DNA of 64,000 nucleotides from an uncultured Gammaproteobacteria bacterium (lineage in GTDB: Bacteria > Patescibacteriota > Patescibacteriia > Magasanikbacterales > GWA2-37-8). A program made the position numbers and the translations under genes. Positions 51,287 through 63,989 of this stretch are shown here, one piece after another. Each line of letters opens with the position of its first letter. Position 1 is the first letter of the stretch. The notes beneath the pieces are model-generated. The model had not been told where the DNA came from, ran no database searches, and was given only the letters and a program-made list of their open reading frames with translations. The stretch spans positions 1,901 through 65,900 of the forward strand of contig CAZBWU010000003.1 in assembly GCA_964496095.1 (NCBI GenBank). Direction: 5' to 3'.

Positions 51287-51412
51287 TGTCATTCTGAGTG
51301 TAGCGCCCGCCCGTACCGAACGAGTACGTTCGGGCGGGAAGAATCCCTGTCCAAATTTAATAATGACAAACGAACAGAGATCCCTCGGGGCGAACCCCGC
51401 TCGGGATGACAG
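51287..51412. mobile_element. MITE-like palindromic element, copy 10
   Basis: tgtcattctgagtgtagcgcccgcccgtaccgaacgagtacgttcgggcggg...gatccctcggggcgaaccccgctcgggatgaca. Its terminal ATGACA supplies the ATG called at 51406. Confidence 0.7.
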
Positions 51413-52800: not shown

Positions 52801-53220
52801 AATCCGCCAGAGGCGGATTGTTAGCCAGATGGATTCAAACTTCACCACTTTCAGTGGTTCTTTTTCATCTCATCGCTAACAACAAAAAAACCATCCAGAG
52901 AGAGTCACCTAAATAACTAATCGAAATTATTTATTCAGGCGATCGGATGGTGATTTTGCAAGACAGATAAATCTGTCTATTTTTATTTACTAACTTGTTT
53001 GCCCACTCCTTATTAAGGAGGGGGGGAGGTCTTATCTATAACCCCTCCTGCGCCTCCCCTTCTTAAAGGGAGGACAACTAGTAAATACAAATAGCTAGAT
53101 TTGAATTGTAGATTTGAAAGAGCGGTAAAGCCGAGGAGGAAGCGCGTAGGGTGACCAGGCTAACGCGTGTCGCGCAGCCCGGCAATAGCCAGGCGACATC
53201 CTCCTGTTTGGGAGTGGCGG

Positions 53221-54000
53221 TTAGCCGCCCCCGACCTTCACGACCACACTGGCCCGGTAGGGCCCGCACGCGATCGTGTAGGTGTAGGTGCCGGGGTTAC
53301 CATTCCCGGCCAGAAATATACTGCTACGGCCGGTGCCTGGCCGATCGATGGCGGGCCAATCACCATCGCCACTGGAGTCGCAGGCTGCTGCCAATGACTC
53401 CCAGTCGAGGTAAATTCTGTCGCCAGCCGCGACAGAATACCACCCACCGGTGTTCCAGGTGGCGGGCGTGGGCACGCCGGCGATGTTGACAAGGACATCA
53501 AAGCGCATCGCGTAGGCCACCAGGGCCTTCGCGTCGCTCATGTCCTCATCCTCGCACACCAGACCGTAGATCGTCTCGCCGAATGGCAGGACGACCTCAG
53601 TCTGCCCAGTCGTCGGCGGCAGGTCCTGGGCCACCCAGTCCCCGCTAACCTGCGCCACGCCGTTGATGGCGGTCGCCCGTTCGCAGGTAGTGGACGAGAT
53701 GGCACTTACCACCTCGTAGCCGAGGACCACCGGCTCCCCAACACGGAGGTTCCGCACCTCCTGCGGGGCCGCCAGCTCCGCGGCCGTGAGGCTCACGGAG
53801 AGAACAGGCCTCGGCGGCAGCGGCAGGCCGATCTCCTGGTTGCCCAGGAACCCCACTGCGGCCGCCGGCGGCTTGCCCGGAGGCTGGTCATCGCCACCCC
53901 CGCCAGCGGGGGTGAAGCCGCACCCCTCGAGAAGGAGTGCGAGCGCGAAGACGAGCGCGCAGAGCGCGCACACCAAGAGGCATTTACGGATGTCCCACAT
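53221..54000 (-). CDS. GC-rich island gene 4: secreted lipoprotein
   Basis: MWDIRKCLLVCALCALVFALALLLEGCG has a lipobox, and AGGGGG lies 8 nt upstream. GC content ~68%. Confidence 0.55.
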   Translation of the reverse strand: MWDIRKCLLVCALCALVFALALLLEGCGFTPAGGGGDDQPPGKPPAAAVGFLGNQEIGLPLPPRPVLSVSLTAAELAAPQEVRNLRVGEPVVLGYEVVSAISSTTCERATAINGVAQVSGDWVAQDLPPTTGQTEVVLPFGETIYGLVCEDEDMSDAKALVAYAMRFDVLVNIAGVPTPATWNTGGWYSVAAGDRIYLDWESLAAACDSSGDGDWPAIDRPGTGRSSIFLAGNGNPGTYTYTIACGPYRASVVVKVGGG

Positions 54001-54457
54001 GATGGACACCCCCTTTCCGGCCCAAGCGGGCCATTACCCAACGGGCCCAGAAAATGTCAAAGTACCGAACGACACAGCATGTGTCGCCCTTCATTGAGTT
54101 TAGAAAATCAATTCTAAACTCTAGAAGAACAACATTTTTTTAAAATGCTATACATTTAGTATAGCATTTTAGTTTTTTTCTGACTATTTATAATCTTTTA
54201 GAACCTATCATTCCCCTACCTAGTAGGAAAATAAATTAGTTTTAAACTTTAAACCTTGCTTCCGACGAGGTGTGTGTTACCACAACACCTCGTCGTCCTC
54301 ACCTAGACCTGGCCGTGGCGCTCGAAACTCGAGCGGCCAGATTGGCCATGCGATGGTCCAGAGTGAGATTTTGGGCAGCTTGTTAAAGCCACCACTTCCC
54401 TGGGGGTAAAACCCCTCCTCCGATTAGGGCAGGTCGGATGAGGCTCGAGGCGCGCTA

Positions 54458-55129
54458 CTACGGCAGGGTGTGCCGGTTGCGCCCGTCGATGTTGCAGCCG
54501 AAGCCACCCTCCCCACCGGCCAGCCAGTAGGCCGGTTGGGTCGCCGGCTGGCCCGGCCACGACAGGTTGCAGGTGCAGCCCTGCGGGAGGTGGGCCAGCC
54601 ACCACGCCGGACCCTTGGTGAAGTCCTCCCAGCGGAGGACCCACAGGATCGTGACCGACGTGGCCGTCGTCGGCGCGACGCGGTTGCCGCTGCCGTTGGC
54701 CGCGAGGGGCACCGGGTCGCCGACCGGCGTGGCCGCCGGGGCGGCGTACCACTGGACGCCCGTGGTGATCCGCTCGAGATCCGTGCTGGCCGCGCACGTG
54801 ATCGACCAGGGCTGGCCGGTCGGGCTGCAGACGTTCGGGCTGGCCGTGTTGCAGGACCAGCCGGTCTCGACCGTGCAGGTCGAGCTGCAGCCGTCGCCGT
54901 TGGCGAGGTTGCCCTGGTCGCACTGCTCGGCGCCGGCCTTGATGCCGTCGCCGCAGATGGCGGCGGACGGGGCGTCCGGGGGCGTCACCGCACCGTCGAT
55001 CGGGGGCGGGTTGGCGGCGTCGACCTCGTCACCGCCGGAGGGGTTCTCGCCCTCCATGGTGCAACCGACGCCGATGACCGCCGTGATGCCGATGATGGAC
55101 GCGCACAGGAACTTGCTGAACTTGAACAT
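54458..55129 (-). CDS. GC-rich island gene 1: secreted Cys-rich protein with Myxococcales-type Cys repeat
   Basis: GGAGG SD 5 nt upstream, signal peptide MFKFSKFLCASIIGITAVIGVGC, and the repeat ICGDGIKAGAEQCDQGNLANGDGCSSTC. Confidence 0.6.
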   Translation of the reverse strand: MFKFSKFLCASIIGITAVIGVGCTMEGENPSGGDEVDAANPPPIDGAVTPPDAPSAAICGDGIKAGAEQCDQGNLANGDGCSSTCTVETGWSCNTASPNVCSPTGQPWSITCAASTDLERITTGVQWYAAPAATPVGDPVPLAANGSGNRVAPTTATSVTILWVLRWEDFTKGPAWWLAHLPQGCTCNLSWPGQPATQPAYWLAGGEGGFGCNIDGRNRHTLP

Positions 55130-55626
55130 GAGAACCTCCGCTTGAGAATGCGTCCACCGCCGGAATGGCGACAGACATTGGGAAACGTTGGGTGCCGAAC
55201 AACTTGGTTTGATTCCTTGCATCTCCAATACGATAGGAGATGAGGATTCTTACCTTGTTCTCGACATTTCAATATCCCTTATTAAATAAAGAATGGTTTT
55301 AATTCTTTGCTTAATGCGGGATATTGATCCGGGTGGTTCTTCTTTTTTGATTGGTTTGATTTGTAAAGAGCTGATTTCCATCTCTATCATTCCCCTATCA
55401 TATAAGGAAATGATTCGATGTGGCCAGGTGCGTGAGCAGAGCTGGCCGTCGATCCGAACGAGGGCCTCCTAGATCCTCGTCGGGGTGATGGCGACTGCAG
55501 TGGCTCCGGATGGAGCCAACGAACAGCACGCACAGGATGTGCAGGTTGACGACGCGGGCGACGCGCGTCGTCGCTCCGACCGGTTGCACTTCCGGTCGGA
55601 GGGGGGTGGGGTCAGAGCGCGACGCG
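55130..55626. repeat. island upstream module copy A (leader + promoter + terminator block)
   Basis: 55257-55626 is ~100% identical (one 1-nt indel) to 56586-56962. 55111-55270 is identical to 57496-57670 apart from 1 nt. Confidence 0.9.
55214..55246 (-). promoter_or_regulatory. conserved 5'-leader hairpin (catctcc...ggagatg) ~85 nt upstream of the start codon
   Basis: Retained in all three leader copies (55214-55246, 56553-56585, 57609-57641) even in the diverged copy B. Confidence 0.5.
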
Positions 55627-56460
55627 GACACCGCCGAAGCCGGCACCGACGATGCTCTTGTCGAGCGGCGCCATCTCCGGCGCGTCGTAGGTCTGCCGGA
55701 GCACGTCGCCCCGCAGGAACACCTCGACACCGAGCTTCTTCGACTCGACCTGGTAGACCGCCTCGAAGGCCGCGCCGTAGAAGCGGAGGGTCGGGGTGTC
55801 CAGCATGTTCCCGAGGTGGATGCGCTGGGTGATCGTGGCGCCGCCGGCGAGCATGATGTGCTCGCTGACGTAACCGTGGATCATCGCATCCGCCCCGTAC
55901 ATGCCCTTCCCCTCGTCGCCGGCGGCGCCACCCTCGTTGATGCCGAGGCGGCCGGTCAGCCGCATCCGACCGTCGAGGAAGGTACCGGAGAAACCGACGA
56001 AGCCGACCGGTCCGGCCTCGCCCATGTACCCGCCCAGGAGCCCGATGTGCAACCGGCCGGGCTTCGTCTGCCGGGTGGCGAGGCGCGCGAGCGCCTCGGC
56101 CTGCGCCTTCTGCGCGGCCGCCAGCTCGTCGAGACGGGCCTTGTCGGCCTGCTGGGCCGCGAGCGCGTCGGCCTGCTGCTTGGCGAGCTCGTCGAGCCGC
56201 TTCTGCTGGTCGCTGCCCTCCATCTCGATGCCCTCGTCGCCGGGGGCCGTGGTGAAGTGGGTGCACGCACCCACTTCGACTTCGACGGTCTTGGTGACGA
56301 GCGGGCCGCCCTCGATGGTCTTCATGCCGTCGGGGCAGGGCTGCGTCGTGACGATGACCTTGTGGTTGTCATCCTCCGCCGCCGCCGGCTTGACGCCGAT
56401 GACGGTGAGGCTGGCGACCGCGACGATGGACGCGCACAGGAACTTGCTGAACTTGAACAT
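55612..56460 (-). CDS. GC-rich island gene 2: secreted protein with coiled-coil and beta-rich C-terminal domain
   Basis: GAGGAG SD, signal peptide MFKFSKFLCASIVAVASLTVIGV...AAA, an Ala/Gln-rich coiled coil, and an alternating-hydrophobic C-terminal half. Confidence 0.55.
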   Translation of the reverse strand: MFKFSKFLCASIVAVASLTVIGVKPAAAEDDNHKVIVTTQPCPDGMKTIEGGPLVTKTVEVEVGACTHFTTAPGDEGIEMEGSDQQKRLDELAKQQADALAAQQADKARLDELAAAQKAQAEALARLATRQTKPGRLHIGLLGGYMGEAGPVGFVGFSGTFLDGRMRLTGRLGINEGGAAGDEGKGMYGADAMIHGYVSEHIMLAGGATITQRIHLGNMLDTPTLRFYGAAFEAVYQVESKKLGVEVFLRGDVLRQTYDAPEMAPLDKSIVGAGFGGVRVAL

Positions 56461-56962
56461 GACGTAGCTCCTCATGAGAGAGTGGTGCGTCCATCGCCGG
56501 AATGGCGGACGGACATTGGGAACCATTCGGGTATCGAACAACTCAGTTTGATTCCTTGCATCTCCACTACGATAGGAGATGAGGAGTCATTCTTTGTTCT
56601 CGACATTTTCAATATCCCTTATTAAATAAAGAATGGTTTTAATTCTTTGCTTAATGCGGGATATTGATCCGGGTGGTTCTTCTTTTTTGATTGGTTTGAT
56701 TTGTAAAGAGCTGATTTCCATCTCTATCATTCCCCTATCATATAAGGAAATGATTCGATGTGGCCAGGTGCGTGAGCAGAGCTGGCCGTCGATCCGAACG
56801 AGGGCCTCCTAGATCCTCGTCGGGGTGATGGCGACTGCAGTGGCTCCGGATGGAGCCAACGAACAGCACGCACAGGATGTGCAGGTTGACGACGCGGGCG
56901 ACGCGCGTCGTCGCTCCGACCGGTTGCACTTCCGGTCGGAGGGGGGTGGGGTCAGAGCGCGA
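56461..56962. repeat. island upstream module copy B
   Basis: See copy A. The leader part (56461-56588) has diverged by ~20%, while the 370-bp promoter/terminator block is identical. Confidence 0.9.
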
Positions 56963-56963
56963 C

Positions 56964-57524
56964 CTACTTGGTGATCGAGACGACGGTCGCCGCCTTGCTG
57001 CCGAGGTTGCGGGCACGCCGCAGGTTGTTGAACTGCGCCTGGAGGCGCAACATGTCCGCCGCGAAGCGGCGGATGAACCACCCCTGCATGTGATCGCGGT
57101 TCTGGGCGTGCTTGGCCATGGCGACGGGGTCCGGCGTCGCGCAGTCCGCGCTGCAGCCGTCGCCGTCCTGCGTCACGCAGACCGCGTCGTCGCCGGGGCA
57201 CTCGCTGTCCCGGGTGCAGAACGCACCCTTCTGGGGTCCGCTGTCGCAGTGACGACCGTTGTCGCACGCCTCGCCGTCCTCGACGACGTCGTTGCCGCAG
57301 ACGGCGTCCCACGACATGTTGATGGTGGCGGTGACCCAGCTGCAGTCCGCGCTGCAGCTATCGCCGTCGACCTTGTTGCCGTCGTCGCACATCTCGTCGC
57401 CGGCGGCGGTGCCGTCGCCGCAGACGACGGGCGGATCCTCCGCCGACGCCGACTTGACGCCGACGGTGGCGACCACGAGCCCGAGGATGATGGACGCGAA
57501 CGTGAGCTTGCTGAACTTGCACAT
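56964..57524 (-). CDS. GC-rich island gene 3: secreted Cys-rich protein with Myxococcales-type Cys repeats
   Basis: GGAGG SD, signal peptide MCKFSKLTFASIILGLVVATVGV, and repeats VCGDGTAAGDEMCDDGNKVDGDSCSADC and VCGNDVVEDGEACDNGRHC. Confidence 0.6.
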   Translation of the reverse strand: MCKFSKLTFASIILGLVVATVGVKSASAEDPPVVCGDGTAAGDEMCDDGNKVDGDSCSADCSWVTATINMSWDAVCGNDVVEDGEACDNGRHCDSGPQKGAFCTRDSECPGDDAVCVTQDGDGCSADCATPDPVAMAKHAQNRDHMQGWFIRRFAADMLRLQAQFNNLRRARNLGSKAATVVSITK

Positions 57525-57740
57525 GAGAACCTCCGCTTGAGAATGCGTCCACCGCCGGAATGGCGACAGACATTGGGAAACGTTGGGTGCCGAACAACTT
57601 GGTTTGATTCCTTGCATCTCCAATACGATAGGAGATGAGGATTCTTACCTTGTTCTCGACATTTCAATATCCCTTATTAAATAAAGAATGGTTTTAATTC
57701 TTTGCTTAATGCGGGATATTGATCCGGGTGGTTTCGCTGT
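57525..57740. repeat. island upstream module copy C (leader identical to A; promoter part truncated/diverged beyond 57740)
   Basis: Matches the A leader and the first ~85 nt of the AT-rich promoter block. Confidence 0.85.
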
Positions 57741-58102
57741 TTGGTTTGGTTGGGTTGTATGGTTTCACATACAAACTCATTCGCTCGACAATACTTTGCT
57801 TGCAAAGTATTGTTCTCGCTCATTTCGATTGTAAAGAGCTTATGCCTACTATTCTTGTTTGAACTACCAATTGCATATATAACTCAATTGATAATTCCAT
57901 TTAAAAACAGTAAAACCTCTACTTTGTGAGAGAGGCTACATATATAGACTATTTACCTGCTTTGTTGATGGCCTAGACAATACTCTCTCACGATATTGCG
58001 TTGGCCGTTAAAAAATCAACAATAGAATACTATACCACAAACTGGAGATATTGTCAAGAGTTCAATGAAAGTATAGCGGAATAATCTGTATTTTTTGGCT
58101 AA

Positions 58103-58160: not shown

Positions 58161-61100
58161 CTATCTTCCGCCAAGTATTTGTTGAGCAATCTTTTCACGC
58201 TGGCCAGCTTGACCATTAATCATAGCTATTGCTTCATTGTGCGTATATCTAATTACTTCACCTGTTTTAGAATTATTTTCAATAAGTTCGTCCTTATCGA
58301 CTGTAAATGTGCTACCCTCAGAAATAAACAAACGCTCGTTACCATTATCCATTAATCGAAATCCATTACTGCCGTTAGCCAACATGTCGGCCTTACTATC
58401 ATTAGACTCCTTGATTAAATCTATGATAGACATTTTAATTCCTCCAAATTTATCAGATGCTCCCCCTTTATAGGTGGCAATTGCCTTTTGTATATAATTA
58501 TAATTTTGTCGATCGGTAGCATCTAGGGCGGTACCGGCAACAATCTTATTTTCTATGCTTTCCATTGGACCTACCAAATGAGACGTCACCATATCTTCTA
58601 ATACCCTAATACTTCCTGGATCTACCTGAAAAAAATGACTCTCAGCGACCAAAGAAACATCCTTTAAAATTGTTTCTAAATCGTTTCCAATTTTTGGAAG
58701 CTCCTCTACAATTTCTACTATTTTTATTTCTTGTTCATGAGGTGTTGTATCAGGTGTGACTACTGCTGACTTCGCACCAGCTCCTGTATCAGGAGTAGTT
58801 CCACCACCCGAGGTCTGTTTATCAAAATCAACTCCAAAATCTTTAGCAATACCCTTAGCAAACTCTCCTGCTTGTGTGCCAGCCTTACCAAGACTATCAG
58901 CGGTATTCTTGACGGCATTCGTTAATGCCTGTTTATCTTGTTCTGTAGGCGGCACAGCTGCCATGGTTTCGCCAGCGTTTCCACTGCTCGTAGGCAAAGC
59001 TTCTACTACCTGACCACTTGGCCTAAATGTTTCTAGGGTTTTAACCTTAATTGTCCTTTGTTCGCCAAGCAAGCCCTCTCCAATAGGCACTGGATGACGG
59101 TGACCTTTGGAATCAAGCACGCCCTGAGCTCGGTTTAACACCTCAACATGCTCGGCTCCGGCTTGAGCAAATTTTATTTTATCGCCTTCTATCTCTGCCA
59201 ACACGGCTCGCTCATCAGCAGTCATCTCGGATGCCGGAACATTATTTTCGGTGTGTTCTCTATATGGATGATCACCTTGCATCTCATTTATTTTGCTGGC
59301 ATTATTCCACATTTGTTTATCAGGATTTTTATCAATAGCTATCTTGCGTCCACCCACAACTCGCATTTGATCCTTGGTAACATAGCCATCTTTACCCTCT
59401 ACAGCACTAAGAATTGGCTTACCTTTTTCATCTACACCAAAACTATAGATATGCCCATGAATATGAAGATCTACCCCCTTACCAGTAAGTCTGGCGTTGG
59501 CAAAATCTTGATTTTCTTCTCCTTGCATAGATCTCCACAACCCCTCTACCATCTTATGATCGGAACCATCTGTCTCTTTATATTTTGCTGCAAACGCTTT
59601 CCAATCAACTTTAGCGCTGGTCTTACCTTTACCTACCCAATCTTCAATGTATTTGAGTTGCGGACGACTAAATTTGAGGCTCTCTAAATATTTTGCCGCT
59701 CTTTCCGGACCGCCTTTGTCTAAAATTTCTTCAAAAATTACTTGCTGGCGTTCGGCTCCCACTTCTACCTCGGTATTTATTTCATATTTAATAAAACCGT
59801 GATGAGAATGCACACCGCTTCCACCTTCACTAGCTGACAATATACGTTGCAAAGATTCCGAATTGTTCAATTCTGGGAAACCTTTTTCACCGGTGACTAA
59901 TTTTTCTAAATGGGGATAAAAATCTTTATCTAATTTATTGTCGACGCCAAATTCTCGCACCGCTGATCCTGGTGTACGAACTTCAGCTATAGGTTGATCT
60001 GCTTCGACCGCAGTTCCTGGTTTATGCGAATCTCCTCCTGGTTGAGGCGCTGCTGGAATTGGAACTGGTATTGGTTCCGGGTGCGCTTGAGCAACCGCAT
60101 CATTCATCGCTCTTTTTAATATACCGTGGTCTGTTTGGCCCCCACCAGTTATCTTATCTTTTATGCTTTCAAGAGTTTCAATCGGATTAGCCACTGCATG
60201 TACGACACGCCCATAACTTTCCAAAGCCCGGCTAGCATTATGGATAGGTTCCTCCCAAATTTTTAAAACTTGACCGCTTTCAACACGATCAATAATCGCA
60301 TCTATTTGCTCTCCAGGTGAAGCGTGTGATGAAAGAAGGGAGCCGTAGATACCAACCGCGCGAGCGATAGTGCCCAAGGCTTTGACAAAATCCATAGCCT
60401 TACCAGTTCCACTCGTACCTTTCTTTGCTCCTTGCCCAGCCAAAGAACGCACTGTTTCCCAAGCAGCCCTTACCGTTACATCTTTGGCCACAAAACCAAA
60501 CTCCGATTCACCGTTAATGCTACCAGCATTCTTATACGTGTGTTCTCTACGTGCTTTTTGGACTCTTTCTGCTACAGAACCAACCGCATAGCCAATACCA
60601 CGCGCAAACAAACCGCCGCCAAGTGTCAGGAGCGTGTTGAGGCCATCTTTGGCAATTTGCGCCCCAGAAACTTTGGCGTGAATATACGATTCTAATAGAC
60701 GCCTGACTTCCGCATCTCTCTCTTCTCTGGCTTCATCCGTGTCTTCTTGGTGTTTGATCGAAATTGCCCATATTCTTTCTGTGATCTGCTGTTTAGCTTC
60801 TGGGCTAATTTTTTTGGTATCATTAATTATTGATTTTAAATCTTCCAAACGAACTCCCACTCCTTCATCCAAAGCCGAGGGCTCTCCTTTTTTTGTTCTT
60901 TCTGAAGATTGGAGTAATTTTTGATATGCATCAAAAATTGATTCCACAAATACCTTAGATTCTTTAGTGCCTTTTCTCCACTCGGCTATATCTCCCTTAC
61001 CAAAAGCTGCAAGGCCTAAATCAGTGATAGTCTTTATACCTAAGACTGAAGTTATTGTATTATAAGCAACTTTTCTGGAAAATTTACGTGTTTCTTTATC

Positions 61101-63989
61101 TTTAAAGGCATCCTTAAAACGCTCCCACCGACTCTTGTCTGGTGGAGGAGGAACTACTGTATCGGCTGGTTTTTTCTTGCCAAAACCTAACAATCCACCA
61201 ATGCGGGATATGATGCCTTTTTTTTCTGGAACAGCAACTATAGAGCCGTCTAAGAATTCAGATTCTGGGGACAATCCTTGTAATGCATCTTGAAATTGTT
61301 GATAGACATCTTTATTTGGATCATTTTTTACTAATTCTATAAATTCTGCAAGTTTAATTTTTACATTGTCTGTAGCAGCTAAGAATGCTTTAGACTCTTC
61401 TTCTGATGTGACTGGTAAATTACGTGCGTCATCAATAATACTAACTAGAGCGTCATAAGAGCCAAGATATTTATTTACTAGTTTAACATTCTTTTTATCC
61501 TTATATAAATTATTAAAAACTTCAGCTAATTTTGTAAGGTCTCTTTCATAGTTAATCAAACGTTCCTCTGCCATAGTTTCTGGTGAAGGTAAATCATTGA
61601 AATCTTCATACAAAGATGTGACACCACCTTCTATTTCCGTAATTAGAGGTTCCAACTCATTCTTACCATCAACTGCTTCGGCTGAAGTAATTTTAACTTC
61701 AATTTCATTAATTTTTTTTTCTATAGCTTCTGTACCAACTTTTTGGGGTAAATAATAATCTCTTAATCTTTGCAGATTTTTTTTAGTATTAGCAAGGGAT
61801 CTTGTTTGAATTTCCGTTTTTCGTTCTGGCAGAGCGCGGATATCTGCCGATAATTGACCAGAAAGAATTGTTTCTATCTGAGAAACCAAACCTTTCAATT
61901 TGCCATAATCTGTACACGTCTCTGCTTCTGTTATTTTACTCTCTAGATCTGCCATTGTAGCATCTATGGCCAGTGTCGAGATTCTTTTCTCTAATCGAGA
62001 CTCCAGGAGTGTAAAATAATTCTTATGACCAATCAAACTAGCTTCCAAATCCAAAGCTTCTATATCTTTTAATATCTCCTCAAGGAGATTATCTAATTCA
62101 GCATTTGGAGTTGAATTTATCAGTTCAATCTTATCATGAATAGGTGGCAACTTTGGTTCTAAGACAGTGAGCCTATTATCAGCGGCAAGACGGCTTCTTA
62201 AATCTCTAAATCTATTTGGAATGATTCTATCTATCCTAAATCTCTGCGCATCGGTAAGCAAAGACAGGTCAGGTCCAAGTGGCGGAAGGACATCCGTTCC
62301 AGCCCGAGGAAGTGGATCAAAATCCGGAAACTCTACATCTGGCTCTGATGAGCCAGCAGGTGGAAGCGCATTAAAATCTTCGTATAATTGCAAAATATCT
62401 CTATCTAGCACCAAAAGGAGAGGTTTTAATTCAGACTTATTAATAAAAGGTACTTTAGCCAAGGTCAAATTTGCCTCAATTTCATCAATTTGAGCTTTCA
62501 ATCTATCTGAATAGGCTTTTGTATGCAATCCATTTTTTACTATAGCTAAATTTTCTTTATACTCCCGTAATTTTTCTTCTTGCTCTGATGTCACAGATTC
62601 AACAGTATCCGAAGCACCAGTAGCTGCGTCAGGAGTTGGAACTGTTTTAGCAGGAAGCTTGCTTATATCTGCGCGCAGAGCATCAAGAATACCTTGTATG
62701 GTTTGAAGTATACCTTCCAAGGTGTTTTTATCGGTACATCTATTTGCCACTTCTAAATTCTTTTTCAACCGTATAAGCCCTGATTCAAGCCTAATCATCT
62801 CCTCATCTTCCCCATCTCTTTTATCTAGCATACCTCCGAGTAACACAAGCTGATCTCGACAATGTCGCAATTTTACTTTTTGCTGATCAGAAATAGGCTC
62901 GGTAGGTGGAGCTACATCCCCTTTAGCCGGAAGTGCCTCTATTTCCGCGACTAAATTACCAAGGCCTGTTTTTATACCATCAAGCGCAACAGCCATATCG
63001 GCACGCGTACGAATATGGCTCAATCTGGTATTCCCTATTTTGACATCAACTTCATCAAGCTTATCCTCCATACCTGGAGTACCTTGTTTTTGCATCAAAA
63101 GATCTTTTAACCTTTGAAGTTCCGTCCTATACCCTTGACGCACATTTATCTGTTCATTAGTAATAAACTCTTGAGAGGCCGGATTTCCAGCTACTCTACT
63201 CTCAAATTCCTGTTTTACTTGAGGCAGTAACTTATTTTCAATTTTCCCAAAATACTTGCCTACAGCTTCCATTTTTTTATCATAAACTTCAAGGTCATTT
63301 GTGCGCGCAGCCTGGTTTAAACATCTTTCTATATCAGTCACCCAGCCAGATATTTTGGATTTCTGTTTATCAGACATCATTTCATCACGAACCGTCACTA
63401 AAATACCTAGTTTACGCTCTGCTTTTTTTCGCTTTTCTATTCTATTCTCAGACTTCTCAGCATCGCTTTGACTTGGATTATCTGCACCATTCTCAGCCTT
63501 AGGTTCAGGCACTTTTTTCTTCGCCTTCAAAGCCTCCATTTCTGTATGAAATTGCTCCAATAAATCATCGACTTCTTTAGTTTTATTCTTGGAAAAATTC
63601 CATTTTTTATGATCAAACGCACTCTTCTCTGTTAAAAACGCCTTAATAAGTTCTTTTACCTTTTCTGTTAAACCAACCATCTCGGCACTATCTTTACCAA
63701 ATTTTTTTTCCATTTCTGCAATCTCTGGTCCAAGAGTTTTAAGATCTTCATCGTGTTTTTTTAATTTTTGACTATAGATTTTTTCTGGATCTAGCAATAC
63801 TTCTTTTTTAACGGCCAATGTTCGAAGTCCAACTTCAATATGTCCTAAAAGATTTTCAACAGTGGCCTTATTTTTACTAGCATAGTCAGACGACTTAAGG
63901 CTCTCTTCTAAACTCTTACATCGACGCAACAGTTCTTTTATCTTAGTTCTACTTTCAGGCAACGCGGCAGTCCCTGATAAATCTTCCAA
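58161..63989 (-). CDS. giant protein (>1,942 aa; N-terminus probably beyond the window end), largely alpha-helical/coiled-coil with a Gly/Thr-rich linker
   Basis: Single uninterrupted minus-strand frame with host-like AT-rich codon usage. The only large ORF on either strand here. I could assign no catalytic motif with confidence (GVDLHIHGHIYSFG and HSHHG noted). Confidence 0.7.
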   Translation of the reverse strand: MEDLSGTAALPESRTKIKELLRRCKSLEESLKSSDYASKNKATVENLLGHIEVGLRTLAVKKEVLLDPEKIYSQKLKKHDEDLKTLGPEIAEMEKKFGKDSAEMVGLTEKVKELIKAFLTEKSAFDHKKWNFSKNKTKEVDDLLEQFHTEMEALKAKKKVPEPKAENGADNPSQSDAEKSENRIEKRKKAERKLGILVTVRDEMMSDKQKSKISGWVTDIERCLNQAARTNDLEVYDKKMEAVGKYFGKIENKLLPQVKQEFESRVAGNPASQEFITNEQINVRQGYRTELQRLKDLLMQKQGTPGMEDKLDEVDVKIGNTRLSHIRTRADMAVALDGIKTGLGNLVAEIEALPAKGDVAPPTEPISDQQKVKLRHCRDQLVLLGGMLDKRDGEDEEMIRLESGLIRLKKNLEVANRCTDKNTLEGILQTIQGILDALRADISKLPAKTVPTPDAATGASDTVESVTSEQEEKLREYKENLAIVKNGLHTKAYSDRLKAQIDEIEANLTLAKVPFINKSELKPLLLVLDRDILQLYEDFNALPPAGSSEPDVEFPDFDPLPRAGTDVLPPLGPDLSLLTDAQRFRIDRIIPNRFRDLRSRLAADNRLTVLEPKLPPIHDKIELINSTPNAELDNLLEEILKDIEALDLEASLIGHKNYFTLLESRLEKRISTLAIDATMADLESKITEAETCTDYGKLKGLVSQIETILSGQLSADIRALPERKTEIQTRSLANTKKNLQRLRDYYLPQKVGTEAIEKKINEIEVKITSAEAVDGKNELEPLITEIEGGVTSLYEDFNDLPSPETMAEERLINYERDLTKLAEVFNNLYKDKKNVKLVNKYLGSYDALVSIIDDARNLPVTSEEESKAFLAATDNVKIKLAEFIELVKNDPNKDVYQQFQDALQGLSPESEFLDGSIVAVPEKKGIISRIGGLLGFGKKKPADTVVPPPPDKSRWERFKDAFKDKETRKFSRKVAYNTITSVLGIKTITDLGLAAFGKGDIAEWRKGTKESKVFVESIFDAYQKLLQSSERTKKGEPSALDEGVGVRLEDLKSIINDTKKISPEAKQQITERIWAISIKHQEDTDEAREERDAEVRRLLESYIHAKVSGAQIAKDGLNTLLTLGGGLFARGIGYAVGSVAERVQKARREHTYKNAGSINGESEFGFVAKDVTVRAAWETVRSLAGQGAKKGTSGTGKAMDFVKALGTIARAVGIYGSLLSSHASPGEQIDAIIDRVESGQVLKIWEEPIHNASRALESYGRVVHAVANPIETLESIKDKITGGGQTDHGILKRAMNDAVAQAHPEPIPVPIPAAPQPGGDSHKPGTAVEADQPIAEVRTPGSAVREFGVDNKLDKDFYPHLEKLVTGEKGFPELNNSESLQRILSASEGGSGVHSHHGFIKYEINTEVEVGAERQQVIFEEILDKGGPERAAKYLESLKFSRPQLKYIEDWVGKGKTSAKVDWKAFAAKYKETDGSDHKMVEGLWRSMQGEENQDFANARLTGKGVDLHIHGHIYSFGVDEKGKPILSAVEGKDGYVTKDQMRVVGGRKIAIDKNPDKQMWNNASKINEMQGDHPYREHTENNVPASEMTADERAVLAEIEGDKIKFAQAGAEHVEVLNRAQGVLDSKGHRHPVPIGEGLLGEQRTIKVKTLETFRPSGQVVEALPTSSGNAGETMAAVPPTEQDKQALTNAVKNTADSLGKAGTQAGEFAKGIAKDFGVDFDKQTSGGGTTPDTGAGAKSAVVTPDTTPHEQEIKIVEIVEELPKIGNDLETILKDVSLVAESHFFQVDPGSIRVLEDMVTSHLVGPMESIENKIVAGTALDATDRQNYNYIQKAIATYKGGASDKFGGIKMSIIDLIKESNDSKADMLANGSNGFRLMDNGNERLFISEGSTFTVDKDELIENNSKTGEVIRYTHNEAIAMINGQAGQREKIAQQILGGR

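Follow-up and report, generated by a model that had tools for sequence, protein, structure and literature searches.

A GC-rich island of tandem genes for predicted exported proteins in the AT-rich DNA of a Shapirobacteria-like member of the Patescibacteria

The DNA analysed here is a 64,000-nt stretch (the window) of contig CAZBWU010000003.1 (assembly GCA_964496095.1, positions 1,901 to 65,900 of the forward strand), and the element under study is an island of four genes, A to D, located at about 53.1-57.75 kb in the numbering of the window. A 300-nt sliding profile showed a GC content of 0.62-0.75 in the island and of 0.35-0.40 outside. Together with a 1-kb profile, which gave no second GC-rich block anywhere in the window, this bears out the GC jump over about 4.6 kb claimed in the initial annotation. 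The island consists of four blocks of 62-75% GC, between which the 300-nt profile drops to 0.39-0.46. The AT-rich spacers themselves have 32-35% GC, close to the 35.8% of the backbone intergenic DNA, in agreement with the earlier proposal that these control modules look host-like.

The four genes, and all the modules, leaders and flanks described below, are on the minus strand. Gene A (57524..56964) codes for 186 aa with a GC content at third codon positions (GC3) of 0.957 and is preceded by the Shine-Dalgarno (SD) sequence GGAGG. Gene B (56460..55612) codes for 282 aa (GC3 0.943, SD GAGGAG), gene C (55129..54458) for 223 aa (GC3 0.964, SD GGAGG) and gene D (54000..53221) for 259 aa (GC3 about 0.81, SD GGGGG). 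In comparison, 37 backbone open reading frames (ORFs) average 0.312 in GC3 and none exceeds 0.398. The frame-specific GC plot exhibited a single GC phase of 0.9-1.0 across each of A, B and C and of 0.8-0.9 in D. GC3 and this phase indicate that the chosen frames are the real coding frames, and the high GC gives rise to the many overlapping ORFs in the other frames of A-D. The GC3 of gene D is significantly below that of the three others (0.815 versus 0.955, z = 7).

In all four genes the SD sequence lies 5-8 nt ahead of the ATG, and a properly placed SD motif was found in none of the approximately 35 backbone genes of the window. This striking contrast, pointed out in the initial annotation, is confirmed. 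From the near-absence of SD motifs in the backbone genes, this lineage of the candidate phyla radiation (CPR) apparently starts translation in an SD-independent way; the window contains no 16S rRNA gene. We found also that the GC-rich blocks extend beyond the genes: 74-85 nt of non-coding DNA precede them at the 5' end (54-58% GC) and 91-202 nt follow them at the 3' end (60-67% GC), which suggests that each imported piece was a complete gene, bringing its translation signals and GC-rich terminal hairpins along.

The only recorded sources of proteins A and B are contigs of 0.8-1.4 kb, though a 132,975-bp NCBI contig must encode both. On this long AT-rich contig, the gene caller probably picked different starts or frames for the GC-rich block, and the automated annotation of the island may be wrong.

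Export signals and cleavage sites of the four proteins were judged from the sequence. All four open with two basic residues followed by a strongly hydrophobic stretch of at least 12 residues, and the N-terminus M[FC]KFSK[FL] is common to A, B and C. The common signal peptide with variable mature parts, as previously described, therefore stands for these three proteins, and the signal peptide of D is unrelated. Protein A carries a Sec-type signal (MCKFSKL...SASA, with a predicted cleavage before ED), as does protein B (MFKFSKF...AAA, cleavage likewise predicted before ED). The signal of protein C is of the lipoprotein type (MFKFSKF...IGVGC), and the hydrophobic N-terminal signal of protein D ends in the atypical lipobox LLEGC. 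With a PROSITE-style lipobox pattern, C passes and D fails, so that the claim of a signal peptide or lipobox on each protein holds for an export-type N-terminus in A-D, with a canonical lipobox in C only.

The mature part of A contains 12 cysteine residues; protein A has two TIGR02232/DUF4215 Cys repeats, one of them canonical and the other degenerate, and its C-terminal helix is basic. In protein C, one such repeat is followed by a C-terminal domain, about 130 aa long, that is unique to it. Protein B has 2 Cys in its mature part; a coiled coil is predicted at about residues 84-130, and its C-terminal half is beta-rich. The 4 Cys in the mature part of D are arranged in two similar Cys-pair segments. 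The TIGR02232 model matched A with 38.8 bits (5.9e-10) and C with 54.0 bits (1.1e-14), for a cut-off of 20.8. PF13948 (DUF4215) matched C with 32.8 (cut-off 27), and A, with 25.1, fell just under. No match to TIGR02232 or PF13948 was obtained for B or D. Four Cys-rich repeat proteins had been announced; this description fits A and C and has to be withdrawn for B and D. Nor is the repeat confined to the Myxococcota, as had been stated: it has been reported from many bacteria and from eukaryotes, for instance from an adhesive-trail protein of a diatom (bioRxiv 10.1101/2023.03.06.531300). The alignments of A and C with their best database relatives are limited to the repeat, and the protein search with C gave matches through the repeat only. 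The nearest repeat-bearing proteins are encoded on contigs of 62-69% GC, one of them annotated as Labilithrix (Myxococcota). Searches of A-D against PHROGs, PADLOC and the PDB sequences gave nothing significant.

Genes A, B and C are each preceded by the same order of elements: an AT-rich spacer, a leader with two more local hairpins, the SD sequence with the ATG, and the codons of the common signal peptide. The spacer hairpin is imperfect, with 26-nt arms and a 7-nt loop, and a search of the window gave three copies, all in the island modules. The 5' module of unit A (57525..57854) contains the AT-rich spacer, this hairpin (57664-57722) and the structured leader with the SD of gene A. After gene A, a shared 3' module (copy 1, 56607..56963) is composed of about 240 nt of GC-rich DNA with several hairpins, the 14-nt motif TAGGGGAATGATAG at 56724-56737, and the AT-rich spacer with the hairpin at 56609-56667. 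Copy 2, after gene B (55267..55623), is 100% identical to copy 1 over 357 nt. The identity starts at gtcgcgctcTGA, which forms the last three codons and the stop of B and lies just past the TAG stop in A. The leader of C (55130..55266) is 98% identical to that of A, and the identity of 98% between both extends over 248 nt, reaching about 35 nt into the coding sequence. The leader of B (56461..56606) is diverged, with 85-94% identity to those of A and C. Repeated modules between the genes, as first described, are thus borne out, and A, B and C do combine conserved 5' ends and identical modules with variable payloads.

Gene D has a similar layout with a largely different sequence. In the C/D region (54001..54457), the 3' flank of C (60% GC) is followed by TAGGGGAATGATAG at 54205-54218, a spacer of 32% GC, a 14-bp hairpin at 54140-54172, and a short D leader of about 58% GC ending with its SD. 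The assertion that each gene has its own AT-rich block and leader is accordingly right for the shared modules of A, B and C, and for D it holds as a similar layout with the 14-nt motif in common. This motif occurs in three copies, at GC/AT transitions, and nowhere else in the window.

The region upstream of gene A (57726-57854, with homology from about 57840) is homologous to the A/B and B/C spacers except for some 85 inserted nt, and it is not preceded by a GC-rich 3' module. From its sequence it looks like native intergenic DNA and the source of the copied spacer. No module copy was found elsewhere in the window. A 26-mer of the module was absent from the one-genome-per-species GTDB set (185,579 genomes), and among 241 million metagenome records it occurred in two contigs only, both identical to the window. 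Three island patterns were found in no viral contig, and the island DNA gave no blastn match in plasmids or phages. A MITE (miniature inverted-repeat transposable element) or a generic promoter element was considered for the module and set aside, the window holding no further copies. Likewise AGCTCTTTACAAATC, tried as a border motif of the island, is no more frequent outside the modules than expected by chance.

The 271-nt leader and the 228-nt 3' module both folded better than 200 of 200 shuffled sequences (z = -5.4 and z = -3.9, respectively). In the alignment of the three leaders, the substitutions of B in the local hairpins comprise one compensatory change, four one-sided changes that preserve the pair and one break. 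Only two distinct leader sequences are available, so the support for functional local hairpins is weak and there is none for sequestration of the SD sequence. A long-range anti-SD stem predicted for the A and C leaders was dropped, as it is broken in B.

Promoter-like sequences were predicted at the GC/AT transition before B and before C (TGGCCA-18-TATGAT) and before D (TAGTCA-17-TATACT). The strongest predicted site is a candidate sigma-70-like promoter at 58029..58057 (minus strand; TTGACA, 17 nt, TG-TATAGT; 11/12 in the promoter scan), just past the terminator of the giant gene that flanks the island and about 500 nt upstream of gene A. The 301 nt downstream of it are non-coding and structured (fold z = -4.4), and a perfect 12-bp hairpin occurs in this stretch at about 57790-57815. 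The interval 57725-58057 may correspond to an unannotated small or structured RNA, or to the 5' end of an array-wide transcript. Rfam gave no family in the window at the gathering score, nor in the island with E up to 1, and a tRNA scan gave no tRNA in the window.

Two further observations concern the modules. The A/B and B/C spacers each contain, on the minus strand (56593-56737 and 55257-55397), an ORF of about 43-46 codons that starts within the conserved motif TAGGGGAATGATAGAGATGG and runs across the 26-nt-arm hairpin. Its two copies differ only at the 3' end and do not allow coding to be judged, and the ORF is missing from the C/D spacer. In the 3' module, about 90 nt (56865-56955 and 55525-55615, minus strand) exhibit a single-phase GC periodicity of 0.87-0.90, and this segment may be the remnant of a donor gene once located downstream of the imported gene.

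Several independent contigs, from a Logan assembly and from two NCBI metagenome assemblies, cover parts of the island. A 3,741-nt Logan contig from run SRR10036081 (L086) corresponds to 55123-51383 of the window at 100% identity and contains most of gene C, the C/D spacer, gene D, AT-rich intergenic DNA and the entire gene of the Wzy protein that adjoins the island. JACCDK010066035 (L004) matches 57854-56746 at 100% and contains unit A plus 130 nt of unique AT-rich upstream sequence, JACCDN010583733 (L005) matches 56851-55497 at 100% and contains unit B, and a third small contig likewise holds gene A. L004 and L005 terminate inside the shared modules, as repeats would predict. Protein D is recorded both from the 132,975-bp NCBI contig, with backbone proteins, and from the Logan assembly of SRR10036081.

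The remainder of the window codes for housekeeping functions throughout, as shown by Pfam with essentially all ORFs of at least 150 aa: alanine racemase, Ser-, Lys/Asp-type and Met-tRNA synthetases, PBP2, MreB, MreC, an AddA-like helicase-nuclease, the F-type ATP synthase operon, MurB, a Mur ligase, a family-4 glycosyltransferase and transketolase. AtpD shares 92% identity with the protein of one metagenome-assembled genome (MAG; CAZUFD01), and is 73-78% identical to those of MAGs labelled Patescibacteria, Saccharibacteria, Falkowbacteria, Woykebacteria and Nomurabacteria. A related contig (L087) stops 8 kb short of the position of the island. A GHL15/FG-GAP protein encoded next to the island clusters at 90% identity or above with a protein annotated as Candidatus Shapirobacteria bacterium. 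These relatives of AtpD and of the GHL15 protein assign the backbone to a Shapirobacteria-like member of the Patescibacteria (CPR).

Both flanks named in the initial annotation were found. On the low-coordinate side, the GHL15/FG-GAP gene and a Wzy_C gene of the O-antigen-ligase family adjoin the island. At this edge (52801..53220, minus strand), the 3' flank of D has 67% GC over 91 nt, followed by AT-rich DNA up to the converging Wzy gene. Between D and the Wzy gene, a 24-nt inverted repeat (52969-53102, 88% complementary) encloses purine/pyrimidine-rich palindromes (CCTCCC...GGGGAGG and GGAGGGG...CTCCCCCCTCC), to which GGAGGGGTT in the 3' flank of gene C is related. The GHL15/Wzy intergenic region (51290-51405) carries two GC-rich palindromic elements, gtcattctgag...gcccgcccgtaccgaacgagtacgttcgggcggg... 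and atccctcggggcgaaccccgctcgggatgac, which resemble REP (repetitive extragenic palindromic) or MITE sequences, and independent Logan contigs end exactly there. On the other side, a giant ORF of more than 1,942 aa (58161-63989, minus strand) runs past the window end and gave no Pfam or PADLOC match. The region coding for its C-terminal third (about 58.8-60.9 kb) has 44-50% GC, clearly higher than the backbone. Lying directly upstream of the island, this ORF may have a functional link with it.

We consider, with a probability of roughly 0.6, that the array is a genuine and recent foreign island in the chromosome of this Shapirobacteria-like bacterium, subsequently expanded in situ by tandem duplication and gene conversion into a family of surface or secreted proteins. 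The GC-rich coding bodies would come from one or more GC-rich bacterial donors, together with their own 5' and 3' non-coding flanks, SD sequences and hairpins. The donor of A, B and C would have a GC3 of about 0.95 and proteins with the 'myxo' Cys repeat. Gene D may come from another donor or have entered at another time, since its GC3 is lower and its signal peptide unrelated. A synonymous GC3 of 0.95 is not compatible with a long residence in a genome of 36% GC, and with the codons intact the AT-rich spacers cannot be decayed GC-rich intergenic DNA. In a first step, a foreign gene would have been inserted downstream of a native AT-rich intergenic region, the spacer supplying each gene with a candidate promoter and a long structured leader. 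The resulting unit (spacer, leader, SD, signal peptide and so on to the 3' module) would then have been duplicated in tandem through unequal crossing-over, with gene conversion homogenising the flanks. That the units share the leader, the signal peptide and the 3' module, far beyond one site, speaks for duplication, and tracts of 100% and 98% identity are found in the flanks while the payloads differ. In a third step, the mature segments would have been replaced or added by recombination with further donor DNA that has the leader/signal-peptide end in common and, in the case of A and B, the 3' module as well. Such exchanges would be explained most economically by homology-facilitated recombination in a competent, DNA-scavenging cell.

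Several points weigh against this interpretation. No donor sequence was found: A and C match other proteins through the repeat alone, and B retrieved only itself, both among 5.8e9 word-indexed proteins and by phmmer over 1.84e9 representatives, as did D in the protein search. Transfer from the Myxococcota is in consequence an attribution by composition and by one repeat type that is also found elsewhere. Single-sequence AlphaFold2 models of B and D had a pLDDT (predicted local distance difference test) of about 42 and were unusable, so that no fold was assigned. The independent cover of the high-coordinate junction stops at 57854, short of the giant gene, and the supporting contigs may all derive from a single site or population. 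The presence of three or four different GC-rich payloads behind similar native-looking AT-rich modules is unexplained, the recombination route being our inference. [quoted passage not shown]

These expression difficulties also bear on another explanation, according to which the island is a very recent integration of scavenged foreign (host) DNA, devoid of function, whose ORFs are intact for lack of decay time. The GC3 of 0.94-0.96, with essentially no amelioration, and the mismatch of codon usage and SD dependence with the recipient agree with it, and CPR bacteria take up foreign nucleic acids (literature cited with bioRxiv 10.64898/2026.09.16.751625). However, A-D are all intact with complete export signals, the units are duplicated and homogenised along with native-like AT-rich upstream modules, and the substitutions in the B leader tend to preserve the hairpins. 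Moreover, random integration would not give exported proteins only, all on one strand. We therefore regard the absence of function as improbable.

The mechanism put forward in the initial annotation, a cassette or contingency array, implies that the units are switched or shuffled often via the identical modules, changing the surface protein made. Tandem genes with a conserved 5' untranslated region (UTR) and signal peptide and with divergent mature parts do form a layout of the Mycoplasma vlp/vsp type, and direct repeats of 357 nt at 100% identity would permit deletion, duplication and gene conversion. However, the devices of such a locus were not found. No simple-sequence tract exceeds 7 nt, the longest homopolymers (6-7 nt) being outside the promoter spacers and start codons; the island has no dinucleotide tract, and the mature regions have no tandem repeat except a 24-nt repeat of 2.2 copies in B. 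The gene-scale repeats are all direct, with no inverted gene-sized repeat or inversion site. Among the ORFs of at least 150 aa, Pfam detected no integrase, tyrosine or serine recombinase, transposase or reverse transcriptase in the 64 kb. Each unit has its own start signals and there are thus no silent cassettes. In addition, contigs from three assemblies (GCA_013565595.1, GCA_013558295.1 and SRR10036081) are 100% identical to the window, these being consensus contigs that break at repeats. With neither recombinase, attC-like core, switching tract, silent cassette nor, among these consensus contigs, sequence variant found, the proposed mechanism is not upheld and frequent switching appears unlikely. 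A diversity-generating retroelement was also rejected: the window has no reverse transcriptase, and the only intragenic repeat pair, between A and C (77% over 90 nt), has differences at every type of base and is not adenine-restricted.

An assembly or binning chimera, in which GC-rich fragments of another organism are misjoined into a CPR contig, would account for the extreme compositional contrast, and short-read assemblies do stop at the repeats (both L004 and L005 within the shared modules), Logan contigs are likewise interrupted at 51383-51403, and the short contigs mentioned above are the only source of the A and B proteins. Against it, L086, from a different assembler, runs unbroken from gene C through D to the complete AT-rich Wzy gene, L004 links gene A to unique AT-rich DNA, and the break at 51.38 kb falls on the GC-rich palindromic repeat elements. 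Backbone-like AT-rich spacers alternate with the GC-rich genes, which a simple misjoin of two organisms would not give. Since unit A, unit B and the D-Wzy junction are reproduced in independent contigs, a chimera is very improbable, and the reading of the island as foreign in composition with no obvious misjoin is supported by the 100% matches.

Least credible is an integron-like or other site-specific capture platform with each unit as a cassette inserted at the 26-nt-arm hairpin or at the TAGGGGAATGATAG motif, suggested by the co-oriented array of payloads foreign in composition, the imperfect palindrome between three units and the 14-nt motif at three GC/AT transitions, because the 64 kb contain no tyrosine or serine recombinase, a regex search of 52.8-58.2 kb on either strand gave no attC-like RYYYAAC...GTTRRRY paired cores 40-130 nt apart and the hairpin itself lacks attC cores, the palindrome lies within the 5' region of each gene and not at cassette 3' ends, and the 26-mer is absent from the 185,579 species genomes and from the viral contigs.

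We thus retain a recent foreign island expanded in situ. As judged from their signals, A and B would be Sec-secreted, C would be a lipoprotein, and an anchor in the membrane or by a lipid is probable for D. The products would most likely be located on or outside the cell, for attachment to or interaction with a partner organism. This role is proposed because of the export signals on A-D, the adhesin-associated Cys repeat in two of them, the lipoprotein anchor on at least one, and the position of the island between a surface-glycan cluster (family-4 glycosyltransferase, Mur ligase, GHL15/FG-GAP, Wzy) and the giant protein without a domain match. In a more specific proposal, the island would be a dedicated capture-and-expression locus, in which a CPR episymbiont repeatedly recruits exported-protein genes from a GC-rich (Myxococcota-like) host to make host-mimicking surface or secreted proteins. 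Recombination anchored on the conserved leader/signal-peptide module would place the captured genes behind AT-rich promoters of the symbiont. We hold this proposal to be improbable, and that the host-type codons and SD sequences are kept because host ribosomes translate the messages is very unlikely. If the capture proposal were true, the island would show which host a Shapirobacteria-like lineage has and would define a new way for symbionts to adapt.

Outside the Saccharibacteria, hardly any member of the Patescibacteria has a known host or known attachment factors, and the island is a concrete lead to the partner and to the means of contact. It raises the question of the use of SD-led genes with a GC3 of 0.95 in a genome of 36% GC without SD motifs, and indicates that islands of extreme GC in CPR MAGs are not to be thrown out automatically as contamination.

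Horizontal gene transfer (HGT) and genomic islands are documented in Patescibacteria, mostly within the phylum, with recent cross-phylum events rarely captured (PMC12455944), and near-identical transfers from Actinomycetota hosts to Saccharimonadia have been described (bioRxiv 10.64898/2026.09.16.751625). The present island is, like those, a compositionally deviant block of accessory genes in a streamlined CPR genome, and transfers from GC-rich partners are among those reported. Here, however, the contrast is far more extreme (GC3 0.95 versus 0.31), mobility genes and a tRNA flank are absent from the window and no donor sequence is identifiable, and the foreign genes are individually interleaved with native-like AT-rich modules, forming a tandem family. 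Proteins A and C have in common with known TIGR02232/DUF4215 proteins the pattern CGDGxxxxxExCDDGNxxxGDGCSxxC, above the TIGR02232 cut-off, but with one or two repeats instead of long arrays, a rest of the protein that is unique, and a CPR host of about 36% GC.

With integron arrays the island shares co-oriented short genes of foreign composition and structured repeats between them. It differs in having no intI, attI or attC cores in the window, in the promoter-like region, SD sequence and start codon of each unit, and in the signal-peptide coding sequence and long flanks that the units have in common. In Mycoplasma, the vlp, vsp and vsa loci are composed of tandem surface lipoprotein genes of a reduced, host-dependent bacterium, with a conserved 5' UTR and signal peptide and divergent mature parts. 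The tandem layout with conserved 5' UTR and signal peptide is found likewise in A, B and C, whereas a canonical lipobox is present in C only, no poly-A or simple sequence repeat switch, invertible element or internal tandem-repeat domain occurs, the genes are foreign in composition, and no variation was seen between the sample contigs. The array, neither an integron nor a demonstrated contingency locus, is best read as an HGT island whose genes were made into a tandem exported-protein family, with native-like modules in front of them.

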